This document shows positions 6,653 to 44,918 of a stretch of DNA of 64,000 bases, in pieces (the stretch's first letter is position 1; the number at the start of each line of letters is the position of its first letter). The position numbers and the translations under genes were made by a program. The notes under the pieces are model-generated. The model saw only the letters and a list, made by a program, of their open reading frames with translations, was not told the DNA's origin and searched no databases. Source of the stretch: a virus; the IMG/VR virus record IMGVR_UViG_3300007512_000009, positions 32,001-96,000 of that record; one strand, 5' to 3'.

Positions 6653-7579
6653 ATGGTTTATTTTAGTAAATTTCCAAGAGTAAACTACACCTTTGATAAT
6701 GGTAAAACCAATAAAATGGCCATTGACATTATGAAAAGAGTGGGGTTTAAAAGCACTACCAAGGCCAACGCAGGTATGTTTGCTGAGCATAATGTTATGG
6801 ATGGTGATACACCAGAAATGCTAGCACATAAAATCTATGGTAGTTCCGAACTACACTGGGTCATTTTGCTTTTTAATGACATTATTAACCCTGACTATGA
6901 CTGGCCAATGTCTAGTAGAAAATTGGAAAGTTTCATTAAGAAAAAGTATCCAGGCAAGGCATTTTTTGTTACAGATGAAAGCGGTGGAACAGGAACTTTT
7001 GCTGATGTACATTTTGAGAGAAATTGGACTGTTCTTGGTATAGATGGTAATACATATGATGATTTACAAAAAACATCTTATGGTCAAACAAATGCGGCCT
7101 TGATACATAGATGGAATAAGAGTCTTTCAAAACTAGAAGTGACAGGTGTTTCAGGTACTTTTTCTACAGGTGACTATATTGTTGCTATTGGCACTTCTGC
7201 AGACGGTTCTACATATAATGTCGGTGCATATCTTGCTAGGGTCGTTGACCAAAACCATGCATCAGTACATCATTTTGAAAATTCAATAGATAAAACTATA
7301 CTTAATCCACTTGGTGCACCACCAACTGGTGGTACTGGGGAACAAGCAGTTGTTGGTCATACCGCTGGCGGACAGACCATTGGTACAACAGGTGATAATT
7401 CAACATATGATGATACTTTATTGCAAAACTATATTGTCGGTTTAACCGACACATATACTAAAACCAATTTTGAATACGAAACAGAAGAAAATGAAAAGAA
7501 AAGAACAATTAAATTGGTTAGGCCAGATTATATAGCCAAAGTGGTTAGAGAATTTGAAGCATTGATGAGGAGTAGATAA
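6653..7579 (+). CDS. gp53: Baseplate wedge protein gp53 (LysM-containing)
   Basis: YFSKFP, DGDTPEMLAHKIYGSSELHWVILLFNDIINP..DWP, TNFEYE..ENEKKRTIKL. Confidence 0.93.
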   Translation: MVYFSKFPRVNYTFDNGKTNKMAIDIMKRVGFKSTTKANAGMFAEHNVMDGDTPEMLAHKIYGSSELHWVILLFNDIINPDYDWPMSSRKLESFIKKKYPGKAFFVTDESGGTGTFADVHFERNWTVLGIDGNTYDDLQKTSYGQTNAALIHRWNKSLSKLEVTGVSGTFSTGDYIVAIGTSADGSTYNVGAYLARVVDQNHASVHHFENSIDKTILNPLGAPPTGGTGEQAVVGHTAGGQTIGTTGDNSTYDDTLLQNYIVGLTDTYTKTNFEYETEENEKKRTIKLVRPDYIAKVVREFEALMRSR

Positions 7580-7581
7580 TC

Positions 7582-9111
7582 TTGCCTAAAGAACACGACT
7601 CATATGAAATATTAAATGATGTTGTAATTGGTAAGGTTGAACTTATCTCAGATAACGGTGGTGCATTAAATGTTACAGATATGGTAAAACATATCAGCAT
7701 TTACGAAGACATAAAAAAACCATATCTAACTGGCTATGTTTACATACAGGATGCTATGAATATTAGTAAACATCTTCCTATAACTGGACATGAAACGTTA
7801 TTGATAGACTTTAAAACGCCAGGTATTGAAAATTCGCAATATATTACCCTTGAGATGGATGTGTTTTCTGTTACTGATAGAACCCGAACGAAAAACGATA
7901 GAGCAGAAATGTATAAGTTGAATTTCTCTTCGAAAATACGAAAAATCAACGAACAAATAAGGATAAACCAAAACTTTAAAGGTTCATGTTCCAGTGTGAT
8001 TAGTCGACTAATAGAAAACATCTTTCCAAAAGACACAATATTTAACATTGAACCAACCCAATATGACTTTGATTTTGTAATACCAAATTTAAAACCACTG
8101 GATACAATTGAGTTTATCTCTAAGAAGGCAATTTCTTGTACCCCACCACACAATGCTAACTTCATGCATTATGAATCAATGGTTGATGGTCAAGTTTTCG
8201 TGTCTTTAGGATTTCTTACAAATAACGATGTGGTAAGAAATTATGAAATGAGAACCAGTGGTTATTACGGAGATAATCTTCTTAAACAAAGATTTAATAT
8301 ACAAGATTTTGAACTAGTTGGCGATTTTAATAGGTATGAAGACTTATCCAATGGTGTTTACATGAGTACCTTAGTTACCCATGACATAACCACAAAACAA
8401 ATAAAAACCTACCGACAGACTGGTGCTCATCATGAGAGTGACACTATTGAGGAGTATGGTATATTACCCCAAAAAAGCAAGTGGACTAGTGTATCTGTTG
8501 TAAATATGGGTTTAGACCACGTAGGTCCAACATATTTTAGGCCTAAACAAATGTACGCATATACTGGTGACATGGGTGCACCAACATCAAATAATCCCAG
8601 CCCTACATGGTATTATAAAGAAGACGGACAATATTTTTTTAGCGACGATGGTAAATTGCTTGACCAAGAATCAGTTGATATGATTGAAGAGGGTAGTGAC
8701 ATTACAATGCGTGAAAACAATTCAGTTAATTTCAACCCAGAAGATTATCTTCTGAAAAATAGAATGACCTCTGGTGCACTTGGTAATACTAGGATAAATA
8801 TAAGGGTAGCGGGTGATTCAACATTAACTTCAGGTATGATAGTAAGCATAAAAGTACCTTCAACTGAACCCTTAGACAAAGATAGTACCGAGTGGTGGGA
8901 CCCATATTATAGTGGTAAGTATATGATTACCGCAATTAGACATTTAATTGATAACATTGGTGGTGGATATACTAGCATTTTAGAGTTATCTAGAGATTCG
9001 TTACCCAATAAAATACCAGACAAAAAGACTTTCGATTTAGGTGAGGATTATAATGAATCTGCATGGCGTAGAGTAGAAGAATTACAACAAGGTAATCTTT
9101 TAGGAATATAA
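7582..9111 (+). CDS. Baseplate hub protein (gp27-like)
   Basis: ISIYEDI..PYLTG...IQDA..LPITGHE, SGKYMITAIRH; sits between gp53 and gp5; TTG start. Confidence 0.7.
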   Translation: MPKEHDSYEILNDVVIGKVELISDNGGALNVTDMVKHISIYEDIKKPYLTGYVYIQDAMNISKHLPITGHETLLIDFKTPGIENSQYITLEMDVFSVTDRTRTKNDRAEMYKLNFSSKIRKINEQIRINQNFKGSCSSVISRLIENIFPKDTIFNIEPTQYDFDFVIPNLKPLDTIEFISKKAISCTPPHNANFMHYESMVDGQVFVSLGFLTNNDVVRNYEMRTSGYYGDNLLKQRFNIQDFELVGDFNRYEDLSNGVYMSTLVTHDITTKQIKTYRQTGAHHESDTIEEYGILPQKSKWTSVSVVNMGLDHVGPTYFRPKQMYAYTGDMGAPTSNNPSPTWYYKEDGQYFFSDDGKLLDQESVDMIEEGSDITMRENNSVNFNPEDYLLKNRMTSGALGNTRINIRVAGDSTLTSGMIVSIKVPSTEPLDKDSTEWWDPYYSGKYMITAIRHLIDNIGGGYTSILELSRDSLPNKIPDKKTFDLGEDYNESAWRRVEELQQGNLLGI

Positions 9112-9114
9112 CTT

Positions 9115-10314: not shown

Positions 10315-10317
10315 GAT

Positions 10318-14786: not shown

Positions 14787-14803
14787 TATAAATATTATAA
14801 ATA
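14787..14803 (+). promoter_or_regulatory. Tandem late promoters
   Basis: TATAAATA at 14787-14794 and again at 14796-14803. Confidence 0.65.
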
Positions 14804-17717: not shown

Positions 17718-19772
17718 ATGGCACTAATCCCCCTACATCTTGGACAAGATGGTATTACCCTTCATGCTATTAGTGGTATATCTGCCAGTGTTGATGATGG
17801 TGCATCTCACCAAAATAAAGACAGGATTCCTGAATTTGTTGCTACTGACCATACGTCTTTTATGACTTTTTTACAAGCATACTATGAATGGATGGAAACA
17901 GAAGGTAATCCTAAATATGAATCTCTTAAAATGTTAGACAGAAGAGATGTGGATGATACTGTTGATGATTTTGTTAAATACTTCTCTAAAGAGTTTATTC
18001 AGAATTTCCCAGAAACATTTGCTAGTACTAGTACAGACAAAAGAAAACTTATTAAAAACATTAAAGATTTTTACTATGCAAAAGGCACTGAAAAATCCTA
18101 TAAGTTATTGTTTAGACTTTTATTTGATGAAACACCTGAATTTAAATATCCAAGTAATGAAATAATAAAAGCATCAGATGCCAATTGGACAGAACCATTA
18201 GTATTAAAACTATCTAAAACTAACGATATATCCAATATATTCGAAATGTTGGGTAGAAAACTAGAACAAAGACACCCGTGGTCTAATGAAATTTTAGCAT
18301 ATGGATTTATTGAAAATATGTTAACATACCACAAAGAAGGTTATGGTGTTATTGAGGTAGAGTTATCAGGCATATTTGGTGACTTTGAATCAGAGAAAGA
18401 AGTTCAAATCACTTTACCTAGTGGTACTACAATATATGAATACGTTTATCCAACCTTAGCAAGCATAGGAGTTTCTTCTGGTGCCAGCGGTACTAATTAT
18501 TCTGTGGGCGACCAAATTACTATCAGTGGAAGCAGTATGGGTGTTGGTGCGTTAGGAGAGGTTACATCAGTTGGTCTTAGTGGTGAGATAAACAGAATTG
18601 AACTATTAAATACAGGTATTAATTACAGGTCTATTGAAAGTTTAACCGCTACAATATCTTCTAACGGTGGTACTGGTAGTGGTGCTACTCTTGGTATTAC
18701 TGGTGGTGGTAACATTCAAAGGAAGAAAGGATACTGGTCTGGGAATGCAGGGTTGTTAAGTTCTTCCAACAAATTACAAGACAATGACTACTACCAATCA
18801 TTTTCTTATGTGATTAAATCATCTAAAAATCTTAAAGATTATGCGGATACGGTAAAGAGAATTATACATCCCGCAGGGTTCAAATTATTTGGTAATACTC
18901 TTCTATCCGAAATCATGTCTGCAGGGGGTACTTTAAGTCCCACACTTAAAAAATATGAAGTACCGCTTAGTGGTCATTATACACCATATAGGTTTACAAC
19001 TGAAAGAAATCTCAGAGCAAACGGTATTGGTGGGTCTGGTGGAACAGACTTATATCCAGACGGATATGGTTGGTCTGCGGGTGCAACTGGATTTGTAGTG
19101 GGAGAAACAGCAAGTACTGTCCATGCAGTTGTCGGTGGTTCTGGCCCTCTAGGGGGTGTTACTCATAGAAATGAAAGTATAGGTTCGGGTGCATCACATG
19201 GAACTGCTGATTCTCAAGGGCCTGGTGGTACACTGAATGGCCCTCAGGGCAACCAGTTTAATGTTGTAGGTGGTATTTGGGGAGCATCTGGAATGTCATC
19301 TGGTGAAACTGGTTATGGTTCAACGCTAGCAGGTGCTGGCTATTGGGAGATTTATTGTCACCCCAATTCTAGAAACATAACCAATATACCCAACAAAAAA
19401 GGTCTTACAACAGATAGACTTTTCTTAACTTCAGCAGAAGGTCAATTAAATGGTTGGGGTATTTGTACTGGTCAGTTTGATGTGGGTGAATACATAATAC
19501 AAAAGAGTCCTCATTCACAATTAGCCATAGGCAAAGTTGGTGCTGTTGATTTTATGGGTGGTATGTTTTATATTGATGTTAACACCATAAGCGGTGTTTT
19601 TCTACCTTATAATCAAGATATGATTGGTGGCTCTGTAGGATTAGCAACTGGAAAGTCTTGGGGTAAAACAGGTTACATAAATAGTATAGGTCGTAGTGTA
19701 GGTTCAACTACTAACTATAACGAAATGAATTATGTAACCATTCAAGACTTCTTATTTGGAATAGAGAGATGA
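17718..19772 (+). CDS. gp7: Baseplate wedge initiator gp7
   Basis: FLQAYYEWME, KLIKNIKDFYYAKGTEKSY..LFR.LF, LQDNDYYQSFSYVIKS, IIHPAGFKLFG. Confidence 0.88.
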   Translation: MALIPLHLGQDGITLHAISGISASVDDGASHQNKDRIPEFVATDHTSFMTFLQAYYEWMETEGNPKYESLKMLDRRDVDDTVDDFVKYFSKEFIQNFPETFASTSTDKRKLIKNIKDFYYAKGTEKSYKLLFRLLFDETPEFKYPSNEIIKASDANWTEPLVLKLSKTNDISNIFEMLGRKLEQRHPWSNEILAYGFIENMLTYHKEGYGVIEVELSGIFGDFESEKEVQITLPSGTTIYEYVYPTLASIGVSSGASGTNYSVGDQITISGSSMGVGALGEVTSVGLSGEINRIELLNTGINYRSIESLTATISSNGGTGSGATLGITGGGNIQRKKGYWSGNAGLLSSSNKLQDNDYYQSFSYVIKSSKNLKDYADTVKRIIHPAGFKLFGNTLLSEIMSAGGTLSPTLKKYEVPLSGHYTPYRFTTERNLRANGIGGSGGTDLYPDGYGWSAGATGFVVGETASTVHAVVGGSGPLGGVTHRNESIGSGASHGTADSQGPGGTLNGPQGNQFNVVGGIWGASGMSSGETGYGSTLAGAGYWEIYCHPNSRNITNIPNKKGLTTDRLFLTSAEGQLNGWGICTGQFDVGEYIIQKSPHSQLAIGKVGAVDFMGGMFYIDVNTISGVFLPYNQDMIGGSVGLATGKSWGKTGYINSIGRSVGSTTNYNEMNYVTIQDFLFGIER

Positions 19773-19779: not shown

Positions 19780-21771
19780 ATGGCATTAAAAGCGACACTA
19801 AAAACTCATATTTTACAAAAATTAATAGATGATTTTCGTATAAATTCTGGTAATTCAAATTTTATCTTTGTTGCAAGAGGAACTTCGTGGTCAAACGACA
19901 GTTCTGCACCAACATATGTTGATAACACAGAATCATATAATGATTTACATAAGAGAATGATTGCCGCTAAAAGGATTACATCCACTGATGCCTATCTTAT
20001 GGTCCCCAAAAATACTTGGGTTAGTGGTACTACCTATAGTATGTACACAGATGACGATGATATGTCTGGAATCACATTTTGGTCTACAAATTCAGAAAAT
20101 AACATATATAAATGCATCTATAACGGTCAAACTGGTGGTAACACATCTAGTGCATTAAATACCTCAGATTCTCCAAGAGGCACATCAAATAATGTAATAA
20201 CTACTGGTGATGGATATCAATGGAAATTCATGTTTAAAGTACCAGAAAACTGGAATAGATTTATCACTGACGACTACATTCCAGTTAAAAAGTTGACACT
20301 ACAAGATGGGGTTTCAGAAAAGTTTGATGATGAAAGACAACTACAATATCATGTGCAATATAATGCTGTAAATGGTTCTATAGATTATATCGATATAACT
20401 AGTGCAGGGAATTCGTATGGTAATAACATCAACGCAGTATATACTGATGCTAACCCAGCACTCCCTAAAACTATATTAACGGATGCGACAACTGGTGAAG
20501 GTACTACTGGTACTGGTGTTCTTAGAACCGTAGATTCTACCGTAGACGATTTTTATAATTCCTACTCGCTCAACATTGTTAAGGGTACAGGAATAGGTCA
20601 GTTCAGAAGAATTCAAGACTATAAAGGTGAAACTAGAACATGTACCGTAGATAACTGGACTATATTACCAGACACATCTAGTTTTTTCGAAATAATGCCC
20701 GAAGCAATCATTGATGGTGATGGTACTGGGGCTGTAGCCAGACCATTTTGTGATGGTGTTACTCTTAGCGGTATTGAAGTTATTAATAAAGGTAGCGGTT
20801 TTACTAGAGCAACCGTAAAAATAAAAACTACTAATAGTAGTGGGGCAACATTTGAACCAATATTAAGTCCATATGGTGGTCACGGTTCAGACCCAGTTTC
20901 CGAAATTCCACCGACCAGACTTATGATTTTAGCCAAACTAGACAGGGATGAATCGGGCATTACTTCTGGAAAATTGTATACTGGTTCTTTTCCTTTAAGA
21001 AACGACTTTAGACAATATGGTATAATCAGAAATCCTACGTTAGCAACTGGTGATAGTAAAGGTAAAATCGCAGGTTCAGAGGTAGACTCTGTTACAGACA
21101 TTAAAATCAGTGCCGCCACAGGTTCTGTTTATGGTGCTGGCGATTTTGTAGAGGATGATATTGTATTTGGGGAATCTAGCATAGCCTGCGGTAAGGTATT
21201 ACAATGGTTTAGAAATACTGATATTTCAAAAGGCACTCTTAGGTTATTAAATGTAGGTACTAAATTCAAAATTGGTGAATATGTTGTAGGATTGGGTACT
21301 GGTAGCGATTGGTCTTCAAGTAACAAAGGTAGTGGCTATGTACAATACCAAGACGAAACGGACATCACTCAAACTAACAACCATTATAGGTTGACTACTG
21401 CATTAGAAATTAGGTCAACCGCAGGGAATTCTGGTGACACCTATGGTATTGCCCATAGCAATAGATTTGATTTAGACCAAATTATCATGGGTTCATCTGG
21501 TAGTTCTGCTACTGTAATTGAATATATTCCAAGCGGTGGACAAACTGCAACGTTGTATTTAAGTAATGTTATCGGTAGTTCTGGTGCAGATTATCACGGA
21601 TTTACTGTAGGAGAAAACCTGTCAGGGGTAACTGTTTCGTCTGTAATAAATAAAATATATATACCCGAATTTAATAAAGGTTCAGGTCAACTGTTATATA
21701 TAAATAATGTAACACCTGTCAGTAGACATAATGAACAGGAAGAGGAAATTAAAATTATCATAGACATATGA
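19780..21771 (+). CDS. gp8: Baseplate wedge subunit gp8
   Basis: WVSGTTYSMY, IYKCIYN, TGDGYQWKFMF, SPYGGHGSDP, FRQYGII.NP, SGQLLYINN, QEEEIKIII. Confidence 0.9.
   Translation: MALKATLKTHILQKLIDDFRINSGNSNFIFVARGTSWSNDSSAPTYVDNTESYNDLHKRMIAAKRITSTDAYLMVPKNTWVSGTTYSMYTDDDDMSGITFWSTNSENNIYKCIYNGQTGGNTSSALNTSDSPRGTSNNVITTGDGYQWKFMFKVPENWNRFITDDYIPVKKLTLQDGVSEKFDDERQLQYHVQYNAVNGSIDYIDITSAGNSYGNNINAVYTDANPALPKTILTDATTGEGTTGTGVLRTVDSTVDDFYNSYSLNIVKGTGIGQFRRIQDYKGETRTCTVDNWTILPDTSSFFEIMPEAIIDGDGTGAVARPFCDGVTLSGIEVINKGSGFTRATVKIKTTNSSGATFEPILSPYGGHGSDPVSEIPPTRLMILAKLDRDESGITSGKLYTGSFPLRNDFRQYGIIRNPTLATGDSKGKIAGSEVDSVTDIKISAATGSVYGAGDFVEDDIVFGESSIACGKVLQWFRNTDISKGTLRLLNVGTKFKIGEYVVGLGTGSDWSSSNKGSGYVQYQDETDITQTNNHYRLTTALEIRSTAGNSGDTYGIAHSNRFDLDQIIMGSSGSSATVIEYIPSGGQTATLYLSNVIGSSGADYHGFTVGENLSGVTVSSVINKIYIPEFNKGSGQLLYINNVTPVSRHNEQEEEIKIIIDI
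21699..21706 (+). promoter_or_regulatory. Possible late promoter inside gp8 serving the next gene
   Basis: TATAAATA 84 nt upstream of ATG 21791; lies in coding sequence, so may be coincidental. Confidence 0.35.
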
Positions 21772-21790: not shown

Positions 21791-24700
21791 ATGCCACAAA
21801 ATTACGACGCACAATTGTTTAATAAAACCCCTTATTATGATGACTATGATGAGGACAAGAGATTTCTTAGGTCTTTATTTAAGCCAGGCGTTGCTATTCA
21901 AGCACGTGAATTGACTCAACTTCAGACTGTTCTTCAAACGCAAATTGAAAGAATGGGTAGTCACATATTTGATAATGGAGCAGTAATCGCAGGTGGTGGT
22001 ATTGCTGAATCTAAAATCAACTATGCACGATTAGGTACTGCTGATGCATTAACTTCTACTGCATTAAGCAGTTTAGTCGGCCAGCAAATTTATGACCCGA
22101 ATCACATAAACGGTGTTGTGCTACACGTACTTAGTGGTTCTACTTTAAGTTCAGACCCTAATCAAGTAGTATTTTACCAATATACATCCAATGGTATTTT
22201 CACAGAGGGTACTCAAATAGGTACTACTGGTTCTGACAGCGTTGGTGTGACTTTTTCAATTGCTAATTCAGGTACTACAGCACCATCAATCGGGGCTGAT
22301 GCAAACATATTTACAGTAGATGACGGTATTTTCTATGTTGATGGATATTTTATTAGAAATTCAAAACAATCAGCAGTACCGTACTACACAACAGGTAATT
22401 ATAGTGCCACCACTGGTGATAGTAGATATAGAGGGTTCGGAAGCCCAACATCATCTGTAGGTTGGAGTGTTGAAAGAACAGTAACAGACCATAATGGTGA
22501 TGTTAGCCTTCGTGACCCATCTGCAGGATTTAACAATTATAATGCGCCGGGCGCAGACAGATATACAGTAAATCTTACATTAAGTCATGTCCCATTTGAT
22601 GGTTCTATTGGAAGTGCTTCTGGTCTTACATTCGATAATAAGGATTTTGTTGAATTGGTAAGGGTAGTGGGTGGTAGTAGTACAAAAACAGTAAAATACA
22701 CAGATTATGCAGAAATTGAAGAAACTTTTGCTAGAAGGACTTTCGATGAATCTGGTAATTACACAGTTAATGCACCTAAGTTGAGGGTAATATCTCACGG
22801 TTCAGTGTTCTCACCATCTGATAGTACAAAATTTGCTGTGGGTATTGACCCTAATAAGTCTTATGTGGGTGGGTTTGAGGTAGATACACAAAGTGTTGCA
22901 TATCTTGAGGTAGATAAAACTAGAGATATAGGTGAAGTACCTGCATATGGTGAAAATCTTGATACAGCACTTGGTAATTATGTATTAGTTAATAGAACTG
23001 ATGTTGATGGTGGATTTGGTGGTGCATCTCAAGGAGATTTTAATGAATCTGCACTAGCAATGAGCAAGCAAAGGTCTTTTAGTATCTGGAAAGATTTCTC
23101 AATCTCTGGTACATCAATTGGTTCATGTAATCTTAGAACAATTGTCAATAACCCTGATGATAAAAATCTCAAAGCGTACCTTTTCAATGTGGGTATGAGT
23201 TCCGATGGTGCATCTGGTTATAAGTTTTCCTCTGCAGGATATCTAGTTGCTGATGATACAGGGAGCGGACATACTGGTGCTACTGGTGTTTTCTTTAAAC
23301 TCAAAGCAGATGCTAGTGGTTGGACTGGACCACATGATGCAGGTAAACGCTCTCTTATATTCCCAGTTGCAAATAATAAAACAATTGGTAAGTCTGGTCC
23401 TGCATATGAATCAAAATACAATTCTAAATTTGTAGTACAAAAAACTTCGACAGCACACTTTAGTAGTGATGCGGATGGTTCTACAGTTTCCATGTCTGAT
23501 TCTATAGGTTTATTAGACGCAGATGATGATAATTATGTAGTATGGTTTGGTGCAACTTCTGATACTTATACAGGTGTGTCTGCCTCTATTTTAGACCCCT
23601 CTGAATATAATATAAAAATATACGGTGCTGACTCTACCAATGCTAAATTTGTTTTAAGCCTTGTGGGTATGTCTGGACCAGCAGATGGTTCTACAGCATC
23701 GATTTTACATCCAGTAATCTATAATTCAAACAGGATTACTACTAATACTGGTCAAAAAGTATACAGGACTCTTACCCAGACTACACAGTCTTCTACAACA
23801 GTATCTACCTCAGAAACTGTATATTTTAACGGTGCTACGTCCGCTAAATTTATTTTAAACCATGCTCATGTTTATGATGTAAAAGAAGTTTCTAATGAGG
23901 GTAACGACATTGCTCTGAGCGATATAACCATAGAAGATGGTCAAAGACAGTCTGCATTCCATAGAAGTTCTGTTTATATCCCTGTAAGTTCACTAGTACT
24001 GGTTGGTTCGGAATACAGATGCCTGTTCACCTATGACTACTATGCACACTCTGGTATTGGCCCAGTTACAGTTAACAGTTATCCAGATTCGTATGAAGAT
24101 GTCCCAGAATTTAATGACCCAGATAGCGGTAAAATTTTAAAACTAAGAGAACATATAGATTTTAGACCTGTACAAAATTCTGATAATACTTATACAGAAT
24201 TTGGTATACCATTCTTTAAAAATAATAACTCATATTCTCAAATAGGCTATAGTTACTATTTACCCAGAATAGACAAAATTTCACTTTGCAAAGATAGAAC
24301 ATATAGAGTCATAAAAGGTGTACCTTCAATAAATCCACAATCACCACAGACATCCTCTGAGGACATGGATTTGTATTTGTTGAAAATTAAACCTTACGTA
24401 TTTAACCTAGGTAAAGATGTCGATGCAAAATACATTGACAATAGACGATTTACCATGAAAACAATAGGTGAATTAGAAAATCAAGTAGAAAACGTTGAAA
24501 GGGACAGACATCTAGAATCGATGTATACCTCTGCGGTCGCTCTAGGGGCTGCAGTGACATCTACGACTCTTATTGAAGAAGGTACTCTAATAGACGATTT
24601 TAGTGGACATGCATTTGGTGATGTATCAAATAGAGATAACAATTGCAGTATGGACTTTAAAGACAGAGGGCTTAAAGCACCATTTACCACAAATGCATTA

Positions 24701-26866
24701 AAATTTGATGTTAACACATTACCTTCAGGGTTAACATTGACTTCTGGTAGAGTTGTAACTTACGACTTCACAGAAGAGAAGGCACTAGGTGTATCGTTTG
24801 GTACTAGTTCGCTGAAAGTCAACCCTTATGGTAATACAGATTTCTTAGGTTATCTAAAACTAAATCCTGCATCTGATTTTTGGTATGATACAGAAACCAA
24901 TCCAGAGGTTTTGGTCAATTCATTTGGTGAAAACAACCAATATCAAACAACAGGGAACGCATGGCAAGCAGGACGTTCTGCGGGTTGGGGTAGCGAATAT
25001 GGTGAATGGAGAAGTCACTGGTTGGGTTCAGAAGAGTTGAATGAAACCATGTCGAAAGTAGACCCCTTAGACAGAAATTATAAATTACCAGTAAAATCAG
25101 CAAGGGCCCAGTTACCTGACAGAGTTCTAAGAGAATCTAACGATAGAACAGTGGATGAAAGTATTGTTCCTTATATGAGGTCAGTAGGTGTTACTTTTGA
25201 TGCTACTGGTTTATTGCCTGGTTCAACAGTTTATGCTTTATTTGATGGTGTATTGGTGGGTGCATCCGGCACAGGTTACTCGGTTAGTAGTCAAGGTGCA
25301 GTTAGCGGTAGAGTTACAGTTGGTAACTCCTATTTAACAGGTGAGAAGACATTTAGATTAACAAACAGTAATACAGACACTTTAAGTAGTACAACAACTG
25401 CAGCCGATGCTAAATTCTATTCACAAGGTTTGTTAAATAGCAAAAGTTCTAATATCATCTCAGATAGACCTGCTATGTCTAGAAGGAAATCTGTTAACAG
25501 CGATAGCATCATTAGCGGACCATATTTGAACACAGTGGATGGTAATTATTCTTCTGTTCAAAACGGATTAGACCCTCTAACACAAGAAATAATTGTGGAT
25601 GCGGGTGCTTTCCCTCAAGGTGTATTCTTAAGTAGTGTTGAGTTATTCTTTAAGAAAGCAGATACTTCTTTACCAGTAACAATCGACATCAGACCCGTTG
25701 TTAATGGTGCACCACACGATTTCTTAGTAGTACCTCATTCAGAAGTTACAGTATTACCAACTACAACTTCGGACGGGCCTAATGGTGGATTAGGAACTAA
25801 ATTTAGTTTTGAATCACCAGTTTATTTACCGCCTGGAAATTGGGCTATCGGTATAATGTCTAATAGTAGCAATAATATATTGTTTAAGGCAGAAGTTGGT
25901 AATGTTTGGTTAGATATAGATGGTACACAAAATGCAAACTCAGACATCTATGGTGGTATGGGATACGGTAATGGAATTCGCCCAGGCAAAATGTTTAAAC
26001 CTTTAAATAATGGTTCTAGACAAAGTAGCAGTCTTGAAAGTGTTACCATGAATGTTCATAGGTGCAGTTTCAGTGGTGGTTCTTTAACCAAAGAACAAAG
26101 AACTCTAATATTAGATGCTACAATGTCATCAGGTTCAACAGCATATGGTCATATAGCAAACGTTGTTAGCAATGACCAGTTATTTACATCAAGTAGCGTA
26201 AGACCTATTTATGATTTGAAGGTCAATGGTGTTAGGTATTCTGGTATTATACCAAATAAAGATGTTACTTTAGTGAAACAAGAAACAATAGATGAAACAG
26301 GTGATATGCAATTAGAGGTAGAATATGGTAGCACTACATCTTCCCTATTAACCCCTGTGTTAGATATGGATAGGATTGGGTCGGTGTTAATCCATGATAG
26401 ATTTACTTGGGCTGTAGTTGGTGCTGATACTGGTTCGGTTCTAGGTGAAACACAAAAGAACTCTGCAGGAGCACCTACTATTGCAAGATATGTATCCAAA
26501 AAATTACATTTTGGTAATTTGATTGCTGACGATTTGAGGGTCTATCTAGACATTGCTCGAAATCAAGGACATGTCAAAGTATTCGCTAAGGTAAACAACG
26601 ATGATGAAGATTTTAACAATATAAAATGGGTTCAACTATATAAGGATGGTGATGCTGAAAAGGAATGGTGGACCGACAGCCAAGCGGAAGTGCTAACACC
26701 AATAGAATTCATGCCGCAGTCCAGTCCAGTTGTCACTTCTTTAGGTGAATTTGATGTTTATGCAATCAAGATTGTGATATTTGGTAGCGATTTGGGTGAA
26801 GGGGATGCAACAGGGATGCCAACAATCAAGAATTTGAGAGCGGTAGCACTAAAGTCTACGGTTTAA
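21791..26866 (+). CDS. Large baseplate-associated structural protein (VrlC / DUF4815-like)
   Basis: PYYDDY, LFKPG..IQARELTQLQT.LQ.QI, A.RTFDESGNY.V, YYLPRIDK, RRFTMK.IG.LE, DPL.Q, ARYVSK. Confidence 0.85.
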   Translation: MPQNYDAQLFNKTPYYDDYDEDKRFLRSLFKPGVAIQARELTQLQTVLQTQIERMGSHIFDNGAVIAGGGIAESKINYARLGTADALTSTALSSLVGQQIYDPNHINGVVLHVLSGSTLSSDPNQVVFYQYTSNGIFTEGTQIGTTGSDSVGVTFSIANSGTTAPSIGADANIFTVDDGIFYVDGYFIRNSKQSAVPYYTTGNYSATTGDSRYRGFGSPTSSVGWSVERTVTDHNGDVSLRDPSAGFNNYNAPGADRYTVNLTLSHVPFDGSIGSASGLTFDNKDFVELVRVVGGSSTKTVKYTDYAEIEETFARRTFDESGNYTVNAPKLRVISHGSVFSPSDSTKFAVGIDPNKSYVGGFEVDTQSVAYLEVDKTRDIGEVPAYGENLDTALGNYVLVNRTDVDGGFGGASQGDFNESALAMSKQRSFSIWKDFSISGTSIGSCNLRTIVNNPDDKNLKAYLFNVGMSSDGASGYKFSSAGYLVADDTGSGHTGATGVFFKLKADASGWTGPHDAGKRSLIFPVANNKTIGKSGPAYESKYNSKFVVQKTSTAHFSSDADGSTVSMSDSIGLLDADDDNYVVWFGATSDTYTGVSASILDPSEYNIKIYGADSTNAKFVLSLVGMSGPADGSTASILHPVIYNSNRITTNTGQKVYRTLTQTTQSSTTVSTSETVYFNGATSAKFILNHAHVYDVKEVSNEGNDIALSDITIEDGQRQSAFHRSSVYIPVSSLVLVGSEYRCLFTYDYYAHSGIGPVTVNSYPDSYEDVPEFNDPDSGKILKLREHIDFRPVQNSDNTYTEFGIPFFKNNNSYSQIGYSYYLPRIDKISLCKDRTYRVIKGVPSINPQSPQTSSEDMDLYLLKIKPYVFNLGKDVDAKYIDNRRFTMKTIGELENQVENVERDRHLESMYTSAVALGAAVTSTTLIEEGTLIDDFSGHAFGDVSNRDNNCSMDFKDRGLKAPFTTNALKFDVNTLPSGLTLTSGRVVTYDFTEEKALGVSFGTSSLKVNPYGNTDFLGYLKLNPASDFWYDTETNPEVLVNSFGENNQYQTTGNAWQAGRSAGWGSEYGEWRSHWLGSEELNETMSKVDPLDRNYKLPVKSARAQLPDRVLRESNDRTVDESIVPYMRSVGVTFDATGLLPGSTVYALFDGVLVGASGTGYSVSSQGAVSGRVTVGNSYLTGEKTFRLTNSNTDTLSSTTTAADAKFYSQGLLNSKSSNIISDRPAMSRRKSVNSDSIISGPYLNTVDGNYSSVQNGLDPLTQEIIVDAGAFPQGVFLSSVELFFKKADTSLPVTIDIRPVVNGAPHDFLVVPHSEVTVLPTTTSDGPNGGLGTKFSFESPVYLPPGNWAIGIMSNSSNNILFKAEVGNVWLDIDGTQNANSDIYGGMGYGNGIRPGKMFKPLNNGSRQSSSLESVTMNVHRCSFSGGSLTKEQRTLILDATMSSGSTAYGHIANVVSNDQLFTSSSVRPIYDLKVNGVRYSGIIPNKDVTLVKQETIDETGDMQLEVEYGSTTSSLLTPVLDMDRIGSVLIHDRFTWAVVGADTGSVLGETQKNSAGAPTIARYVSKKLHFGNLIADDLRVYLDIARNQGHVKVFAKVNNDDEDFNNIKWVQLYKDGDAEKEWWTDSQAEVLTPIEFMPQSSPVVTSLGEFDVYAIKIVIFGSDLGEGDATGMPTIKNLRAVALKSTV

Positions 26867-29425: not shown

Positions 29426-29434
29426 ACATAAAAT

Positions 29435-30184: not shown

Positions 30185-30203
30185 AAGGGGTTAAATAACA
30201 TTT

Positions 30204-31076
30204 ATGGCTATTAATCCACATTTTAAACCCCAAAAAGGTGAACAAGATATAATTGAAGACTTGACCGTAGAAACGATTAAAATTCACGGTCATGATTTTA
30301 TATATTTACCAAGAACACTAGTTAAAGAAGATGAATTGTTTGGTGAAGATGTACTATCTAAATTCACCAATGGGATAGAGTTGGAAATGTATATTGAATC
30401 TGTAGACGGATTTGAGGGCGAAGGTGATTTTATCTCTAAATTTGGTCTTGAAATTAGGGATTCGATGAGTTTGGTATTGTCTAAGAAAAGATTTACACAA
30501 GAGGTGACACCTGTAGTACCTACTGTTTTAACTCCTAGAGAGGGGGATTTGATTTATTTTCCCAAAACACAGGGTATTTTTGAAATCAAATTCGTAGAAC
30601 ATGAAAACCCATTCTACCAATTAAACAAACTATATACCTATAAACTTTCATGTGAGTTATTCCAATACAGTCAAGAAGATATCGATACTGGTTGGACAAA
30701 TGTGGATAAAATTGAATCCGACAGGATGGATTTTGTCGTTGAATTAACTATGACTGGTGGTGTAACTGGTACGTTTGAAACTGGTGAATATATATTTGAT
30801 AATGCAACGTATGCTACTTCAACCAACACCGCAGAAGTTATCAAATGGACATCTTCTACTAAGGTTATGCAAATTGCAGGTCAATCTGGTAATATCGGAC
30901 TGGTTGGGGTCACAGGACAATGTGGTGGATATGCAGTTGTCGGTTCTACAGCATCACCATCAACTACTACTGTCATCCCTACAGACACCTATTCCGATAA
31001 TAGGGATTTCCAAATTGAAGCAGATGATATATTTGACTTTACTGACCAAGACCCATTCTCAGAGGGTAATTATTAA
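30204..31076 (+). CDS. gp14: Neck protein gp14
   Basis: EQ.IIEDL..E.IKIHG, YLPR, SKFGLEIRD, PREGDLIYFP, FEIKFVEHENPFYQL, DPFSE. Confidence 0.96.
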   Translation: MAINPHFKPQKGEQDIIEDLTVETIKIHGHDFIYLPRTLVKEDELFGEDVLSKFTNGIELEMYIESVDGFEGEGDFISKFGLEIRDSMSLVLSKKRFTQEVTPVVPTVLTPREGDLIYFPKTQGIFEIKFVEHENPFYQLNKLYTYKLSCELFQYSQEDIDTGWTNVDKIESDRMDFVVELTMTGGVTGTFETGEYIFDNATYATSTNTAEVIKWTSSTKVMQIAGQSGNIGLVGVTGQCGGYAVVGSTASPSTTTVIPTDTYSDNRDFQIEADDIFDFTDQDPFSEGNY

Positions 31077-31914
31077 TGTTTGAGATTTTTTATAACAAAG
31101 CAGTAAGAAAACTCACAGTAGCAATGGGTTCTCTGTTCAACAATATTCATGTTGTAAGAACCGATGCTGATGGTGATATCACATCTCAAATTCGTGTACC
31201 CTTAGGTTACGGGCCGAAAGAAAAATGGATTAGAAGACTTAGAGAATCCAACTCTCTTGCGGATGATACTAATGATGTAGAAATTACTTTACCGAGATTA
31301 AGTTTCGAAATGAATAGTATCCATTATGACCCTGCTAGAAAGAAAAATACCATGCAAAAAAGATGGTATAGACACACCGATAATACTAAATTATATACAA
31401 ACTACATAGAAGTACCCTATGATTTTGAGTTTAGTGTTACTGCTATGGTGAAATTTATGGAAGATGGGTTGTGTATTATGGAGCAAATTTTACCATATTT
31501 CACTCCTGAGTTTACTGTTACTATCAACTTTAATGACATTAATCAATCTGTTGATATCCCTATTATCCTTAACTCTGTAGAAGTGAATGAAGAATATGAA
31601 GGTGATTTTGATGCACGAAGATTGATTACTTTTGACATGTCGTTCACAGCGAAATCCAACGTGTTTGGCCCAACAAAAACAAGCCAACCTATTCAAACAG
31701 CAATTGCTACTATCTGGGAGCCAAATTCATTCTACCACGATGGTACATCTCTTGGTATGTCTGGTACAACTGCAGCCATGTCCAAACTTACTGTCGGTGT
31801 TACGGGACCAAGTGGTGCGTCTTCTGGTGTGGATACCTTCACTGGATTTACTGTGGGAACTAGAGTTTATGGTATGACTGGAGAAGATGGTATAAGTCTT
31901 GATGGAACTAATTT

Positions 31915-31918
<4 letters not shown>
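31076..31918 (+). CDS. gp15: Tail terminator / sheath stabiliser gp15
   Basis: FYN..VRK..VAMG.LFNNI, VPL.YGPKEK, LPRLSFEM, EQILPYF.P, YEGDF..RR. Confidence 0.96.
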
Positions 31919-34139: not shown

Positions 34140-36005
34140 ATGGCATTTCAAGTAAGCCCTGGCGTAGTAGTCAAGGAAGAAGACCTTTCCAGTTATATAC
34201 CTGCGGTATCTTCAACCATAGCAGGTTTTGCGGGCCACTTTAGGTGGGGACCTGCGGGTGTAATAGTGACTGTAGACAGTGAAAATAACCTAAAACAGTT
34301 GTTTGGTAAACCCACAGAAACAAATTATGAACAATGGTTTACGGCCGCAAACTTTTTGAATTATGGTAGTAATCTTAAAGTGGTAAGAACAGTTAATACT
34401 GATAGCACTGGTGCACATGCCGCCAACGCATCGGGACCATCAGGGGCTGCTTCTTCGGGGGCTGTCAAACTCACAACTAGCACATCCAACGTTGAAGCAT
34501 CCAAAACCACAGCAGGTGGTTCTGGTGGTCAACAATGGCAAGCAAAATATCCTGGCTCAATGGGCGACTCTTTGAAAGTTGTCTGGTGGGACGGTGGTCA
34601 CTCTGGCCCTGCAGGTTCAACACAAGCACCACCACTTGCACATCTTGGTGTATCAGCAGGTGCTTATAAAAACTGGACATATGTGGATTATTTCACTACT
34701 AACATGCCTTTTACAACTGGTTGGGCAAACACCTTAACTGGTAGCGACACTGTTTATGATGGTGTAAATATCGCAATTATAGATGAAGATGGTGAATTCA
34801 CTGGTACTAAAGGTACTGTTGTCGAAACATTTAATGCTGTATCAAAGGCAAGTAATGCCAGAAATGCAGACAATACAAGCAACTACTATTTAGATGTAAT
34901 CAATAATACATCAAAATATGTCTGGTCATTAGCACATCCTTATGAGGCAACACCAAACGTTAACGCAGACCAAGGTGTTTCTGGTGGTTCACAAAACTGG
35001 GGTACAGACCTAACTGTTAGTGGTGGTACTTACGATGTACTTTACACGGGTGCTACCTCAGGTGCTCAATTCAGTCTAGCAGGCGGTTCTGGTGAAACAA
35101 CTGGTACAGTTGGTGCAGGAAGTGGTAGCACAATGGACTTCGGTCTTTTCTATGACACAGAAACAGTTGATGTTAGTGTTTTACTAGGTGGCCCTGCTAA
35201 TAATACTCTTGCAGGTCAACTAGTTGATTTAGCAGATACTAGAAAGGACTGTGTGGTGTTCCTTTCACCAGAAAAGGCAGACACGATTTCAGGTAGTACA
35301 CCACTCGATGAATCAACCGCAGAAACTAACGTTCTCGATTTCAGAAACGCACAACTAAACAAGAATAGTTCTTATGCATTCCTCGATTCTGGTTGGAAGT
35401 ACATGTACGACCGTTATAACGATAAATATCGATGGGTGCCGCTATGTGCTGATACTGCAGGTCTTGCGGTACGTTCTGATGAAGAAACAGAAACGTGGTT
35501 CTCGCCTGCGGGATTCAACCGTGGTCAACTACGAAATGTAGTTAAACTATCATGGAATCCACGTAAAGCACATCGTGACAATCTTTATCAAGACCAAGTT
35601 AACCCAGTAGTTTCCTTCCCTGGCGAAGGTACAGTGTTATGGGGTGACAAAACACTTCTGACTAAACCAAGTGCGTTCGACCGATTGAATGTCAGAAGGT
35701 TGTTCATTGTCCTTGAAAAAGCAATATCAACAGCATCCAAATACCAAATCTTTGAACAAAACGACGAATTTACTCGTTCTAACTTCAAGGGTATGATTGA
35801 ACCATTCCTTCGGGATGTTCAATCGAGAAGGGGTTTATCTGACTTCAAGGTAATCTGTGATGATACTAATAACACATCAGCAGTGGTAGATAGGAATGAA
35901 TTTGTCGCTGACATCTTCATTAAGCCTATTAAATCTATTAACTACATCACTTTGACATTTGTTGCGACTTCACAAGGTGTAGATTTCACAGAGATAGGTT
36001 CATAA
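34140..36005 (+). CDS. gp18: Tail sheath protein gp18
   Basis: MAFQVSPGVVVKEEDL, F.WGP, DSGWKYMYDRYND.YRWVP, WFSPAGFNRG, FDRLNVRRLF, FVADIFIKP. Confidence 0.98.
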   Translation: MAFQVSPGVVVKEEDLSSYIPAVSSTIAGFAGHFRWGPAGVIVTVDSENNLKQLFGKPTETNYEQWFTAANFLNYGSNLKVVRTVNTDSTGAHAANASGPSGAASSGAVKLTTSTSNVEASKTTAGGSGGQQWQAKYPGSMGDSLKVVWWDGGHSGPAGSTQAPPLAHLGVSAGAYKNWTYVDYFTTNMPFTTGWANTLTGSDTVYDGVNIAIIDEDGEFTGTKGTVVETFNAVSKASNARNADNTSNYYLDVINNTSKYVWSLAHPYEATPNVNADQGVSGGSQNWGTDLTVSGGTYDVLYTGATSGAQFSLAGGSGETTGTVGAGSGSTMDFGLFYDTETVDVSVLLGGPANNTLAGQLVDLADTRKDCVVFLSPEKADTISGSTPLDESTAETNVLDFRNAQLNKNSSYAFLDSGWKYMYDRYNDKYRWVPLCADTAGLAVRSDEETETWFSPAGFNRGQLRNVVKLSWNPRKAHRDNLYQDQVNPVVSFPGEGTVLWGDKTLLTKPSAFDRLNVRRLFIVLEKAISTASKYQIFEQNDEFTRSNFKGMIEPFLRDVQSRRGLSDFKVICDDTNNTSAVVDRNEFVADIFIKPIKSINYITLTFVATSQGVDFTEIGS

Positions 36006-41289: not shown

Positions 41290-41293
41290 TTTT

Positions 41294-42509: not shown

Positions 42510-42539
42510 TTGTTAATGGCTTTTCAGAAATTTTTTTGT

Positions 42540-42547
42540 TATACATA
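42540..42547 (+). promoter_or_regulatory. Variant late promoter TATACATA
   Basis: Upstream of the gp23 SD (AGAGGAG). Confidence 0.5.
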
Positions 42548-42593
42548 AATTAGTAGATTAAAAAACTTAATATCAAAAGAGGAGATATTTTAA

Positions 42594-44006
42594 ATGATAC
42601 TTAATGAATTCGCACCCGACCCTACTGCTATTGCTGAGCAGTTAAAGGAAAAATGGTCACCGATTTTGGACCACAATGATGTTGAGCCAATCAAAGACCA
42701 TTATCGGAGAAATGTAACAGCAATATTGCTTGAAAACCAAGAACAAGCAATGATGTCAGATAACATGCTCTTTGAGCAGCCTGCTAATAAAATCGCAGCC
42801 GCACCTACTACTGGTGGTGTTGCAACTTGGGACCCTGTATTAATTTCACTAGTACGTCGTTCAATGCCTAACTTAATGGCATACGATATTTGCGGTGTTC
42901 AACCAATGACTGGACCAACTGGTCTGATTTTTGCTATGAAAGCAAAATACACAAGTCAAGGTGGTACAGAAGCATGGCCAATAAACATTGATACCGACTT
43001 CAGTGGTGCAACTGCAGCCTACGGTGCTGACGGTACAGACCCATTGGGTGCAGGTACAACTCAGGGCCTTGGTGCAACAAATGCCGCTGAGCCTGGAAAT
43101 GGTATGTCAACAACTGCTGTTGAAGGTGAAACTGCATTCAACCAAATGGCATTCGAAATTGCTCGTACATCAGTTACAGCAAAATCACGTGCTTTGAAAG
43201 CAGAATATACAACTGAACTCGCTCAAGATTTGAAAGCAGTTCATGGTCTTGACGCAGAAACTGAACTTGCTAATATTCTTAGCAGTCAAATTCTCTCTGA
43301 AATCAACCGAGAAGTTATTCGTACACTGTATGTAAATGCTAAACTTGGTGCACAAAACAGCGATTTGGTCTACTGCGGTGCTAGTGACTCAGATACATTG
43401 GGTGCAAGTGCAGCCAACTTCGGTGTTAGCACCGCAAGTGGTATCGGTGGTATTTACGACGTGACACTCGACTCAGATGGTCGATGGAGTGCTGAACGAT
43501 TCCGTGGTCTTCTTTTCCAAATCGAAAGAGAATGCAACCAAATCGCTAAAGACACTCGTCGTGGTAAAGGTAACATTGTATTGTGTTCATCAGATGTTGC
43601 ATCTGCACTCGCTATGGGTGGATTCTTGCAACTATCAGGTGGTGATGCAGGTAACTTGAATGTAGACGATATGGGTAATACCCTTGCAGGTACTATCGGT
43701 GGTGGTCGCATTAAAGTTTATGTTGACCCATATGCTACAATTAACTACGTAATTTGTGGTTATCGAGGTTCAGGTGCTTACGATGCTGGAATGTTCTACT
43801 GCCCATACGTCCCACTACAAATGGTACGTGCGGTTGGTGAAAACAGTTTCCAACCTAAGATTGGTTTCAAAACTCGCTACGGATTGGTAAATAACCCATT
43901 CGTTGGTGCGTCATATAGTGACCCAAGTGACAGTACATCAAACCGTCGTAACCAATACTACAGAATTTTCCGAGTTGATTCACTACACGGTGGTCTAACT
44001 GCTTGA
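42594..44006 (+). CDS. gp23: Major capsid protein gp23
   Basis: DPVLISLVRRSMPNLMAYDICGVQPMTGPTGLIFAM, KSRALKAEYTTELAQDLKAVHGLDAETEL, FQPKIGFKTRYG. Confidence 0.99.
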   Translation: MILNEFAPDPTAIAEQLKEKWSPILDHNDVEPIKDHYRRNVTAILLENQEQAMMSDNMLFEQPANKIAAAPTTGGVATWDPVLISLVRRSMPNLMAYDICGVQPMTGPTGLIFAMKAKYTSQGGTEAWPINIDTDFSGATAAYGADGTDPLGAGTTQGLGATNAAEPGNGMSTTAVEGETAFNQMAFEIARTSVTAKSRALKAEYTTELAQDLKAVHGLDAETELANILSSQILSEINREVIRTLYVNAKLGAQNSDLVYCGASDSDTLGASAANFGVSTASGIGGIYDVTLDSDGRWSAERFRGLLFQIERECNQIAKDTRRGKGNIVLCSSDVASALAMGGFLQLSGGDAGNLNVDDMGNTLAGTIGGGRIKVYVDPYATINYVICGYRGSGAYDAGMFYCPYVPLQMVRAVGENSFQPKIGFKTRYGLVNNPFVGASYSDPSDSTSNRRNQYYRIFRVDSLHGGLTA

Positions 44007-44036
44007 TTCTGGTTAATAGTTATTAAATTCAAAATT

Positions 44037-44066
44037 GGGGTGTTCTTTTTGGAACACCCCTTTTTT
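44037..44066 (+). terminator. Rho-independent terminator after gp23
   Basis: GGGGTGTTC, 6-nt loop, GAACACCCC, then TTTTTT. Confidence 0.9.
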
Positions 44067-44067
44067 G

Positions 44068-44075
44068 TATAAATA
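44068..44075 (+). promoter_or_regulatory. Late promoter TATAAATA
   Basis: Exact motif immediately after the gp23 terminator. Confidence 0.75.
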
Positions 44076-44119
44076 CCTAGTAGCAGTTTTTAGTAAATAT
44101 ATGATAGGAGTTCATAAAA

Positions 44120-44359
44120 ATGGCATATGACATGTATAGTAGAGTAGAAACAATAACCCCGCACGACACTGATGGTGAATATGGGTATAAAGGTTTTATA
44201 GTTAATACTGGTGGCACCGCCTATATTGACCCCATGCACAATGGTAACGGTGGGACAAACTGTAAAATAAACCTGACGGCCGGTATTGTCTATCCGATTG
44301 GAATTTCCAGAATTAGAGCAACTGGTACTAGTGCAGAAGGGTTTTTAGGTCTAAAGTAA
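44120..44359 (+). CDS. Head spike-base-like protein (resembles RcGTA Rcc01079 family)
   Basis: ITPHD...KGFIVNTGGT...AGIVYPIGISRIRATGT matches the ITPSD..R..VG.GG..G...PI...RV.ATGT pattern. Confidence 0.6.
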   Translation: MAYDMYSRVETITPHDTDGEYGYKGFIVNTGGTAYIDPMHNGNGGTNCKINLTAGIVYPIGISRIRATGTSAEGFLGLK

Positions 44360-44360
44360 T

Positions 44361-44918
44361 ATGGCGATAACTGCAGGAATAACTGCAGGTGATTTGCCGG
44401 GCGTTCCACCAACTTTACCTGCTGATATAAACTTAAGACAACCTAGCAACAGTAGTTTTCTTCATCCAACTGCTTTTAGGTTTTATGTTAGCAGAGTACC
44501 TGCTGTTACTTATTTCTGTCAAGCAGTAAATATCCCAAGTCTTGAAATCGAAGAAATACCTTTCACCACAACTATGGCAATACACAAAGAAATAGGGGGT
44601 AACGTAGCATATGGTGCCCTTACTGCACGTGTACTAGTAGATGAAAATATGGAAACTTGGAGAGGTATGCACGACTGGATGAGGGATATATCAAAATTCG
44701 ATAACGACCTAGAAATAATTGATGACGAAGACCATAGATGTGACCTCAGGCTGTTGGTGTTGACTAATGGTATGAATGCTAATGTGGAATTTACTTTCAA
44801 ACAATGCTGGCCGTCCTCACTGGGTGAAATTAATTTTGATAGTGCTGTTACAGACCTTGAAAATCTTAGTTTTGATATAACATTTTCTTACAATTCTTTT
44901 TCAGTTAAGAAATTCTAA
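44361..44918 (+). CDS. gp3: Tail completion / sheath stabiliser gp3
   Basis: FLHPTAFRF...RVP.V.YFCQAVNIP, VDENME.W..MH.WM, L.VLTN, WP.SLG..NFD. Confidence 0.92.
   Translation: MAITAGITAGDLPGVPPTLPADINLRQPSNSSFLHPTAFRFYVSRVPAVTYFCQAVNIPSLEIEEIPFTTTMAIHKEIGGNVAYGALTARVLVDENMETWRGMHDWMRDISKFDNDLEIIDDEDHRCDLRLLVLTNGMNANVEFTFKQCWPSSLGEINFDSAVTDLENLSFDITFSYNSFSVKKF

Follow-up and report, generated by a model that had tools for sequence, protein, structure and literature searches.

The stretch of DNA analyzed here (the window) comprises 64,000 nucleotides, positions 32001-96000 of a single 126,210-bp contig (IMG/VR record IMGVR_UViG_3300007512_000009), and the element of interest is a four-residue motif, G-x-[ST]-[GA], that recurs in the virion proteins it encodes. 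The window has a guanine-cytosine content of ~35%, and its nearest cultured relatives share 73-75% DNA identity with it over ~300 bp only. Scans of the window proteins with PHROG and Pfam recovered a T4 gene order typical of the group, and the window represents the core, structural as well as replicative, of a distant marine T4-like myovirus. The order runs from gp32 through minus-strand hub and tube genes to gp48, gp53, a tail protein, gp5, a 744-residue fiber, and PAAR, followed by gp25, gp6, a gp7-like gene, gp8, the gene of a 1691-residue protein, and the genes of two unknown proteins. It continues with gp13, gp14, gp15, TerS/TerL, gp18, gp19, the portal, protease, scaffold, gp23, and gp3, and closes with UvsY/UvsW, gp46/47, gp45/44/62, and RegA. 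An island of sugar genes begins after regA, and the gene of a candidate protein glycosyltransferase (GT) lies ~7 kb beyond the window end (Table 1).

Occurrences of the motif were tallied in 58 proteins, each compared with shuffles of its own sequence. Under whole-protein shuffling, exterior virion proteins contained 77 motifs where 23.3 were expected, and probable exterior proteins contained 21 where 7.1 were expected. In contrast, two motifs were found in interior virion proteins (3.5 expected) and seven in non-structural proteins (3.8 expected), and the count was zero in each of the portal, TerL, gp21 (the protease), and gp22 (the scaffold). The original prediction had described the motif as rare in these four and in core and replication proteins, which held, and had proposed a comparison of exterior and interior proteins against composition-shuffled controls. 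When the exterior and probable exterior proteins were pooled, 98 motifs were observed against 30.4 expected from global shuffles, 37.1 from shuffles within 20-residue blocks, and 40.1 from shuffles within 10-residue blocks (z = 9.7-12.3), while the remaining proteins displayed no excess (9 versus 8.8 expected).

The excess was directional. Neither the reversed form [GA][ST].G nor the shifted form G[ST].[GA] departed from expectation in the exterior set (40 versus 40.8 and 40 versus 40.6, respectively). No enrichment was seen when position 3 was D/E, N/Q, K/R, or V/I/L, so that S/T alone was enriched, and G..G as a whole was raised only mildly in the exterior set. The residue at x was essentially free, including W, M, K, and E, and the flanks of the motif were poor in charged residues. 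The bias of a motif selected by eye was addressed by an unbiased scan of ~12,000 three-residue patterns, which recovered G.SG (32 versus 12.8), G.TG (31 versus 12.5), and G.TA (18 versus 6.6; all counts from exterior proteins only) among the strongest well-populated patterns. Collagen-like repeats were ruled out as the source, since period-3 pairs held only 10 of the 98 sites; the 88 others were isolated (37.3 ± 5.2 expected). Long uninterrupted (G-X-Y)n repeats were not found in the window proteins, where the longest run had ~6 triplets and occurred in the protein starting at 28418.

It is scarcely credible that these counts are an artefact of patches rich in G/S/T, of repeats within the proteins, or of a motif at the nucleotide level. 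The exterior proteins are indeed rich in G/S/T and the 744-residue fiber has internal repeats, but the excess stood at z ~10 under 10-residue block shuffles, the mirror-image motifs stayed at expectation, and isolated sites exceeded their expected number. Composition and local patches were ruled out by these block shuffles and mirror-motif controls. The position-3 codons also favored TCT/ACT (62% versus 43% in other S/T preceding G/A). So slight a lean does not point to a motif in the DNA. That reading was ruled out given that the preference is modest and the codons of x vary freely, and what orthologs preserve is the peptide motif, not its nucleotides.

Orthologs at 40-90% identity were retrieved from IMG/VR contigs. 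The sites appeared in them as conserved columns in which x varied while S and T, and likewise G and A, interchanged, as in GQTG/GLSG/GATG, GKTG/GATA/GVTA/GITA, and GVSA/GYTA. Retention of S/T was 65% at motif sites versus 54% at other S/T, and identity of the x residue was 34% versus a background of 49%. All contigs with a gp6 of at least 44% identity had a 1.8- to 3.7-fold excess of the motif, and more distant contigs were mixed. Control phages were scored against 10-residue block shuffles, with 4 motifs observed and 6.4 expected in the T4-type RB32, 20 and 18.6 in HTVC008M, 7 and 6.5 in phiM9, 21 and 15.7 in DLP6, 44 and 33 in P-SSM2, and 47 and 30.5 in Syn9. A generic trait of T4-like structural proteins was thus ruled out, as the first four had no excess and the last two a mild one at most.

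The excess accompanied the GT in the genomes that could be compared. All four GT-carrying genomes or contigs (G000-G003, from two subclades) were enriched, by 2.2- to 3.3-fold, whereas the five complete genomes without a GT and RB32, whose lack of the gene rests on a tblastn search, ranged from 0.6- to 1.5-fold (none or mild in 6 of 6). The 136-kb relative G001 contains the whole sugar island and the same enriched proteins. In G002 and G003, at 35-55% protein identity, the GT gene is placed within the virion module and flanked by genes of motif-rich proteins longer than 1000 residues; gp8, gp14, gp15, gp18, and gp23 are enriched there as well, mostly at other columns. Between the subclades, sites in gp15, gp18, and gp8 were placed at mostly different columns, and comparison of the aligned proteins suggests a turnover of sites with their density maintained.

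The candidate GT belongs to the GT2 family of GT-A fold enzymes (Pfam PF00535, E = 5e-10) and has a DxD motif, I89-D90-A91-D92, that was invariant in 33 homologs. An AlphaFold (AF2) model built from these homologs had a predicted local distance difference test score (pLDDT) of 92.7, with an alpha/beta GT-A domain at residues 1-180 (pLDDT >90), nine paired helices at residues 186-363, and a long, Lys-rich C-terminal helix. A TPR-like helical repeat domain was evident in the C-terminal half, where the Pfam match of TPR type was weak. The top Foldseek matches were the peptide glycosyltransferases SunS and ThuS, aligned full-length over ~405 columns at E ~1e-13; the TPR domain of OGT and designed TPR proteins were also matched. 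The best match by sequence in the PDB was GmaR. No homolog was found in the cultured T4-like phages searched.

Directly after the GT lies a 157-residue open reading frame (ORF) that is kept in 37 loci, where the motif positions include an invariant T-G. Its model is an immunoglobulin-like beta-sandwich in which the motifs all fall in loops or hairpin turns, and a weak resemblance to a tail-tip protein of T5/DT57C was found (Foldseek E = 4e-6). This ORF is probably an unannotated virion protein. Besides this ORF, only one other beyond the window was enriched, a 538-residue ORF on the minus strand for which no family match was found. It may be a further virion or fiber protein outside the structural block.

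Within the window, every instance of the motif listed in the original prediction was found except a GTSA assigned to the spike base: gp5 contains no motif, and the only GTSA seen was in gp53. The prediction also held that many copies sit in insertions or terminal extensions, which proved correct for gp14, gp15, and gp53, as judged from their Pfam cores, and for gp18 and gp23. In gp53, the sites fell at residues 111-244, a lineage-specific insertion, while the Pfam core covers residues 38-89 only; they were kept in orthologs, and none was found in gp53 of RB32, DLP6, HTVC008M, or phiM9. All four sites of gp14 were at residues 186-247, in a C-terminal addition to the T4 neck core (Pfam, residues 6-171), with none in DLP6, HTVC008M, or RB32. 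Similarly, all five sites of gp15 were in a C-terminal tail (residues 227-266) following the Pfam gp15 core (residues 5-213); the five enzyme-less controls had none, phiM9 giving no gp15 match, and the gp15 sites of the second enzyme-carrying subclade fell mostly at different columns. In gp18, all six sites mapped to residues ~105-342 of RB32 gp18, a poorly conserved part with 19% identity versus 48% in the C-terminal core, which we take to correspond to the outward-facing domains I and II of T4 gp18. Two gp18 columns carried the motif only in enzyme-carrying genomes (GPSG/GPSG/GYTG and GGSG/GGSG/GGTA). The gp23 sites at residues 270 (an insertion) and 467 (an extended C-terminus) lie in lineage-specific additions. 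The sites may be exposed at the surface, given their positions in loops of the modeled 157-residue ORF, in terminal additions, and in the putative outer part of gp18.

The gp7-like sites were conserved columns with S/T and G/A swaps among 27 orthologs and were absent from relatives at ~36% identity. Columns of gp8 included GQTG/GLSG/GATG and GQTA/GVTA, and gp8 of the second enzyme-carrying subclade had 13 sites versus 2.1 expected. Motif columns were likewise conserved in the 1691-residue protein, and residue 117 of the 278-residue protein was part of a G-x-S-G in 9 of 12 orthologs, with x variable. In the 744-residue fiber, many sites occurred within repeated '..sfnG[AS]TGav..' and 'GISA' units, and similar fibers were found downstream of the GT in relatives. 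The protein starting at 26904 is homologous to this fiber (BLASTP 3e-8 over ~390 residues), and the two form a paralogous pair in the baseplate module.

A weakly similar module of 60-100 residues was found inserted in gp53, gp14, the gp7-like protein, gp8, and the protein at 12552-13664, with, for example, gp14 186-289 matching gp53 165-280 at E = 9e-5. It recurs in the 1691-residue protein as well, and some motifs begin it; these alignments suggest a shuffled small decoration domain. Residues 255-295 of the gp7-like protein matched Pfam Gp18_dom_I. A single shared inserted domain was ruled out as the source of the motif, since the weak module covers ~8 of the 98 sites.

Table 1. Motif-bearing proteins and associated features; positions are those of the window unless stated otherwise.
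Feature	Position	Strand	Match or context	Motif sites (expected)
gp53 baseplate wedge protein	6653..7579	+	PHROG 232	6 (0.7)
Fiber/spike protein, 744 residues	10318..12552	+		17 (5.8)
Unknown protein of baseplate module, 278 residues	13949..14785	+		5 (0.8)
gp7-like wedge protein	17718..19772	+	PHROG 17744	13 (2.8)
gp8 wedge protein, large additions	19780..21771	+	PHROG 438	7 (2.0)
1691-residue virion protein	21791..26866	+	PHROG 358, Pfam DUF4815; TATAAATA 84 bp upstream	13 (4.4)
Unknown fiber-like protein, 492 residues	26904..28382	+	TATAAATA 21 bp upstream	8 (2.8)
Unknown protein, 335 residues	28418..29425	+	Short collagen-like stretch GPTGGTGLNGPTGPGHSGGYTA	7 (2.0)
gp14 neck protein	30204..31076	+		4 (0.4)
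gp15 tail terminator	31076..31918	+		5 (0.4)
gp18 tail sheath	34140..36005	+		6 (2.1)
gp23 major capsid protein	42594..44006	+		5 (1.5)
Adenylosuccinate-lyase-like protein	49372-50775		Matches kept in relative G001	3
T4 late-promoter consensus TATAAATA	5441-5481, 14787-14803, 26875, 34064, 36012, 44068		18-84 bp 5' of gp48, 14838 ORF, 26904 ORF, gp18, gp19, and ORF preceding gp3	
Sugar island between regA and gp43	Starts 59681..64000, to window-equivalent ~73000	+	Pfam, NCBIfam	
Candidate protein glycosyltransferase, 434 residues	L001:12255-13559; genome 103255-104559; window-equivalent 71255-72559		GT2 with TPR-like half	
157-residue Ig-like ORF	L001:13581-14054; window-equivalent 72581-73054		Directly after the GT; TATAAATA 18 bp upstream	5
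538-residue ORF	Genome 29369-30985	-	~1 kb before the window	9 (3.8)
Tunturi_5 gp29	L209:14813-19222	-	Annotated tail fiber	75 (19.3)

The part of the sugar island inside the window consists of four ORFs without firm matches and a PseB-like uridine diphosphate-sugar 4,6-dehydratase. Further genes encode a HAD phosphatase/mutase, a sugar-1-phosphate nucleotidyltransferase, a GT10-like protein, a DegT aminotransferase, a cupin, two SDR epimerases, and the 434-residue candidate GT. For the ORFs at 59681-63272, nothing firm was found in Pfam or NCBIfam (sub-threshold matches to GT25 at E = 0.001 and to DUF7796 at E = 6e-4), and searching the PDB by sequence yielded no useful match for either the ORF at 60341 or the GT10-like ORF. 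A glycosyltransferase and nucleotide-sugar cluster had been predicted at 59681-64000; inside the window it is visible only weakly, as the dehydratase and the one sub-threshold GT25 match, and the clear GTs lie beyond the window. The slot between regA and gp43 was hypervariable in IMG/VR contigs (L103-L182), with about a dozen sugar genes in some and none in others. Where sugar genes were absent, the GT was directly 3' of regA, and the GT and the small ORF were the constant parts. The variability of the island suggests diversifying selection.

The GT family was also linked to G-x-T-rich genes elsewhere. In a profile search, the GT was identified in at least 261 viral contigs. The 80 that were examined are T4-like and arranged as gp45-gp44-gp62-regA-[variable sugar genes or none]-GT-small ORF-[fibers]. 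In these 80 contigs, the three ORFs that follow the GT (+1 to +3) contained 1.9-2.9 motifs per 100 residues, compared with 0.07-0.23 upstream. The enzyme family adjoined (G-x-T)n collagen-like genes in over 70 related phage contigs: many of the downstream ORFs were (GPT)n/(GxT)n collagen-like fibers with up to 214 sites, and these fibers also held isolated 'sfnGSTGav' units resembling the fiber of the window. In the genome under study, the 157-residue ORF is the only adjoining motif-rich gene, and the other candidate substrates are encoded 40-60 kb away. In the cultured jumbo phage Tunturi_5 of Tunturiibacter (PP885688), the GT is gp35, and the enriched fiber gp29, which is (G-[PA]-T)n collagen-like, is encoded 3.7 kb from it; this phage offers a ready experimental system. 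Linkage of the GT to a motif-rich gene was also found in a megaphage, while in the megaphage LR756501 a GT homolog was present with no motif-rich ORF within 12 kb. Among bacteria, 27 of 74 loci displayed the linkage, including those of Streptomyces, Bacillus, Paenibacillus, Clostridia, and Bradyrhizobium. Such pairing of enzyme and substrate genes in Streptomyces, Bacillus, Clostridia, and other bacteria suggests that a system for modifying collagen-like surface proteins is widespread.

The evidence of selection on the motif does not by itself identify its reader, and the island also includes genes of unknown function. The motif could hence be a linear recognition site for a partner other than a GT, such as another modification enzyme, an assembly chaperone, or a host-surface ligand. 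This appears improbable, as no such candidate matches the gene linkage of the GT-A and TPR family, and the known enzymology of SgtA from Clostridioides difficile (below) already fits the motif.

The reading that we favor, with a probability of about 0.6, is that G-x-[ST]-[GA] serves as the acceptor site of a phage-encoded cytoplasmic protein O-glycosyltransferase. It fits best because it brings together the directionality of the motif, its restriction to outer proteins, the turnover of sites with density kept, and the linkage to the enzyme. The candidate enzyme would act before particles assemble or while they do so, moving a sugar from its nucleotide carrier onto the Ser/Thr hydroxyls of G-x-S/T-G/A loops that virion proteins expose. 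Either the host or the neighboring island, with its dehydratase, aminotransferase, and nucleotidyltransferase, could supply the donor, and the glycan might be lengthened by further GT-like products of the island. The sheath, neck, baseplate periphery, fibers, and parts of the capsid would in this way acquire a glycan coat. The virion is thus predicted to be probably sugar-coated, and we infer the action of the enzyme on the motif sites, the sugar used, and the role of the coat. The original prediction of a phage O-glycosylation system is partly supported by the comparative evidence, that is, the composition-corrected directional excess, the co-occurrence with the GT, and the linkage to G-x-T genes, but the likely enzyme is encoded outside the cluster at 59681-64000.

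Several observations weigh against the acceptor reading. Conservation of the motif S/T exceeds the background only moderately (65% versus 54%), the G-x-S/T-A variant has no enzymological precedent, and the late promoter TATAAATA was not found directly 5' of the GT gene. Some sites are certainly not sequons: one of the matches in the adenylosuccinate-lyase-like protein is the lyase-family signature GSSA, and the tetrapeptide therefore arises also for unrelated catalytic reasons. Similarly, the GPTG at residue 107 of gp23 is common to the GT-less P-SSM2, DLP6, and HTVC008M and is therefore structural. With this site, and with gp5, gp6, gp13, PAAR, and the tail protein at 7582 having zero or one site each, the original proposal of a coat over the whole virion was overstated. 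In addition, Syn9 lacks the GT and yet has a mild 1.5-fold excess. The GT-carrying set consists of two related subclades, most metagenomic contigs being too short to score, and the correlation with the GT consequently rests on few independent events. Finally, a structural role is also plausible for a Gly-rich motif in loops and turns.

Several of these points would favor the main rival reading, a motif that is purely structural, namely a favored tight-turn or a mini-collagen or polyproline II element of small beta-rich decoration modules and fiber repeats that were added to virion proteins in this lineage. The GT-A and TPR enzyme, if it acts on proteins, would then modify only true (G-x-T)n collagen-like fibers or another target. 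Such a role is consistent with the loops and hairpin turns of the modeled 157-residue ORF, the weak module of six proteins, the repeated units of the fiber, the gp23 GPTG kept without a GT, the mild enrichment of Syn9 fibers, and the small number of independent GT-carrying lineages that could be scored. We nonetheless consider it rather unlikely. The motif is found in 12 or more proteins whose folds are unrelated, the residue at x is free, only ~8 of the 98 sites fit the shared module pattern, and positions turn over between subclades with density kept. Moreover, homologous columns in GT-less phages keep the glycines but not the S/T-G/A (for example, GGSG versus GGTD/GGKT in gp18), and the T4-type, HTVC008M, phiM9, and DLP6 proteins are without excess.

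If sites are acceptors as proposed, a defined tetrapeptide and a single candidate enzyme make the system directly testable with peptides or co-expression, and for hundreds of environmental phages the glycosites would be predictable from the genome sequence. How the phage adsorbs, how stable its particles are, how readily they stick to marine polymers, and whether grazers or antibodies recognize them could all be influenced by a glycan coat. At roughly even odds, we extend the proposal to a large, mostly uncultured T4-like clade in which one SgtA-like transferase and a four-residue sequon would place an O-glycan coat on about a dozen virion proteins, with the island setting the glycan type. A tailed phage would then bear a glycan shield that is serotype-like and coded by a sequon, with sites gained and turned over as on glycan-shielded viral envelope proteins.

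Particles of T4-like phages are textbook examples of unmodified protein machines, and glycosylated virions are, to our knowledge, established for some actinobacteriophages only. No report of a T4-like virion that bears glycans, or of this pairing of GT and fiber in phages, came up in our literature search. Freeman and colleagues (cited in PMC12801897) reportedly found in 2023 that GTs encoded by mycobacteriophages modify the phages' own capsid and tail proteins; the phages are said to be actinobacteriophage siphoviruses with sites in C-terminal extensions, and no defined short sequon is known for them. In contrast, the present case concerns a T4-like myovirus, a defined tetrapeptide, and about a dozen proteins. 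In the BclA protein of Bacillus anthracis, Thr of G-P-T repeats carries O-glycans. The fibers beside the GT in relatives are similarly long (GPT)n arrays, although BclA forms a spore filament rather than part of a virion and the isolated sites of the window are not collagen.

We know of no G-x-S/T-G acceptor for Listeria GmaR or for the glycocin glycosyltransferases SunS and ThuS. These enzymes act on protein or peptide and share the GT-A and TPR-like architecture of the phage enzyme, but what they modify, through S- or O-linkage, is flagellin or bacteriocin peptides. GmaR, which has the same GT-A and TPR layout, O-GlcNAcylates flagellin (PMC9638930). Its antirepressor domain is absent from the phage enzyme.

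As far as we know, SgtA and BclA3 of C. difficile are the only characterized case of such an enzyme-substrate pair. SgtA is a 358-residue enzyme with a GT-A domain and four TPRs, encoded immediately upstream of bclA3, and it adds beta-O-linked N-acetylglucosamine to Thr/Ser of short peptides, including the single-site G-A-T-G, G-A-S-G, and G-P-T-G (PMC7157674). The phage enzyme likewise has a GT-A domain followed by TPRs, and its gene in relatives adjoins a G-x-T collagen-like gene, an arrangement of GT and (G-x-T)n that copies sgtA-bclA3. Unlike SgtA, it is phage-encoded, has 434 residues, and ends in the Lys-rich helix. It is likened to SgtA by published description, and similarity in sequence is remote, the Clostridia/Lachnospiraceae homologs in an sgtA-like arrangement being ~25% identical to it. 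The SgtA acceptor, G-x-T-G or G-x-S-G even as a single site, agrees with the phage motif, except that the latter also takes A at position 4. A sequon of the phage's own had been predicted, but the motif is the acceptor peptide of SgtA on BclA3 (PMC7157674). Whereas the BclA3 sites are confined to one collagen region, those of the phage are scattered across many globular proteins of the virion, and the novelty is this dispersal of a known SgtA acceptor over many proteins of the virion.

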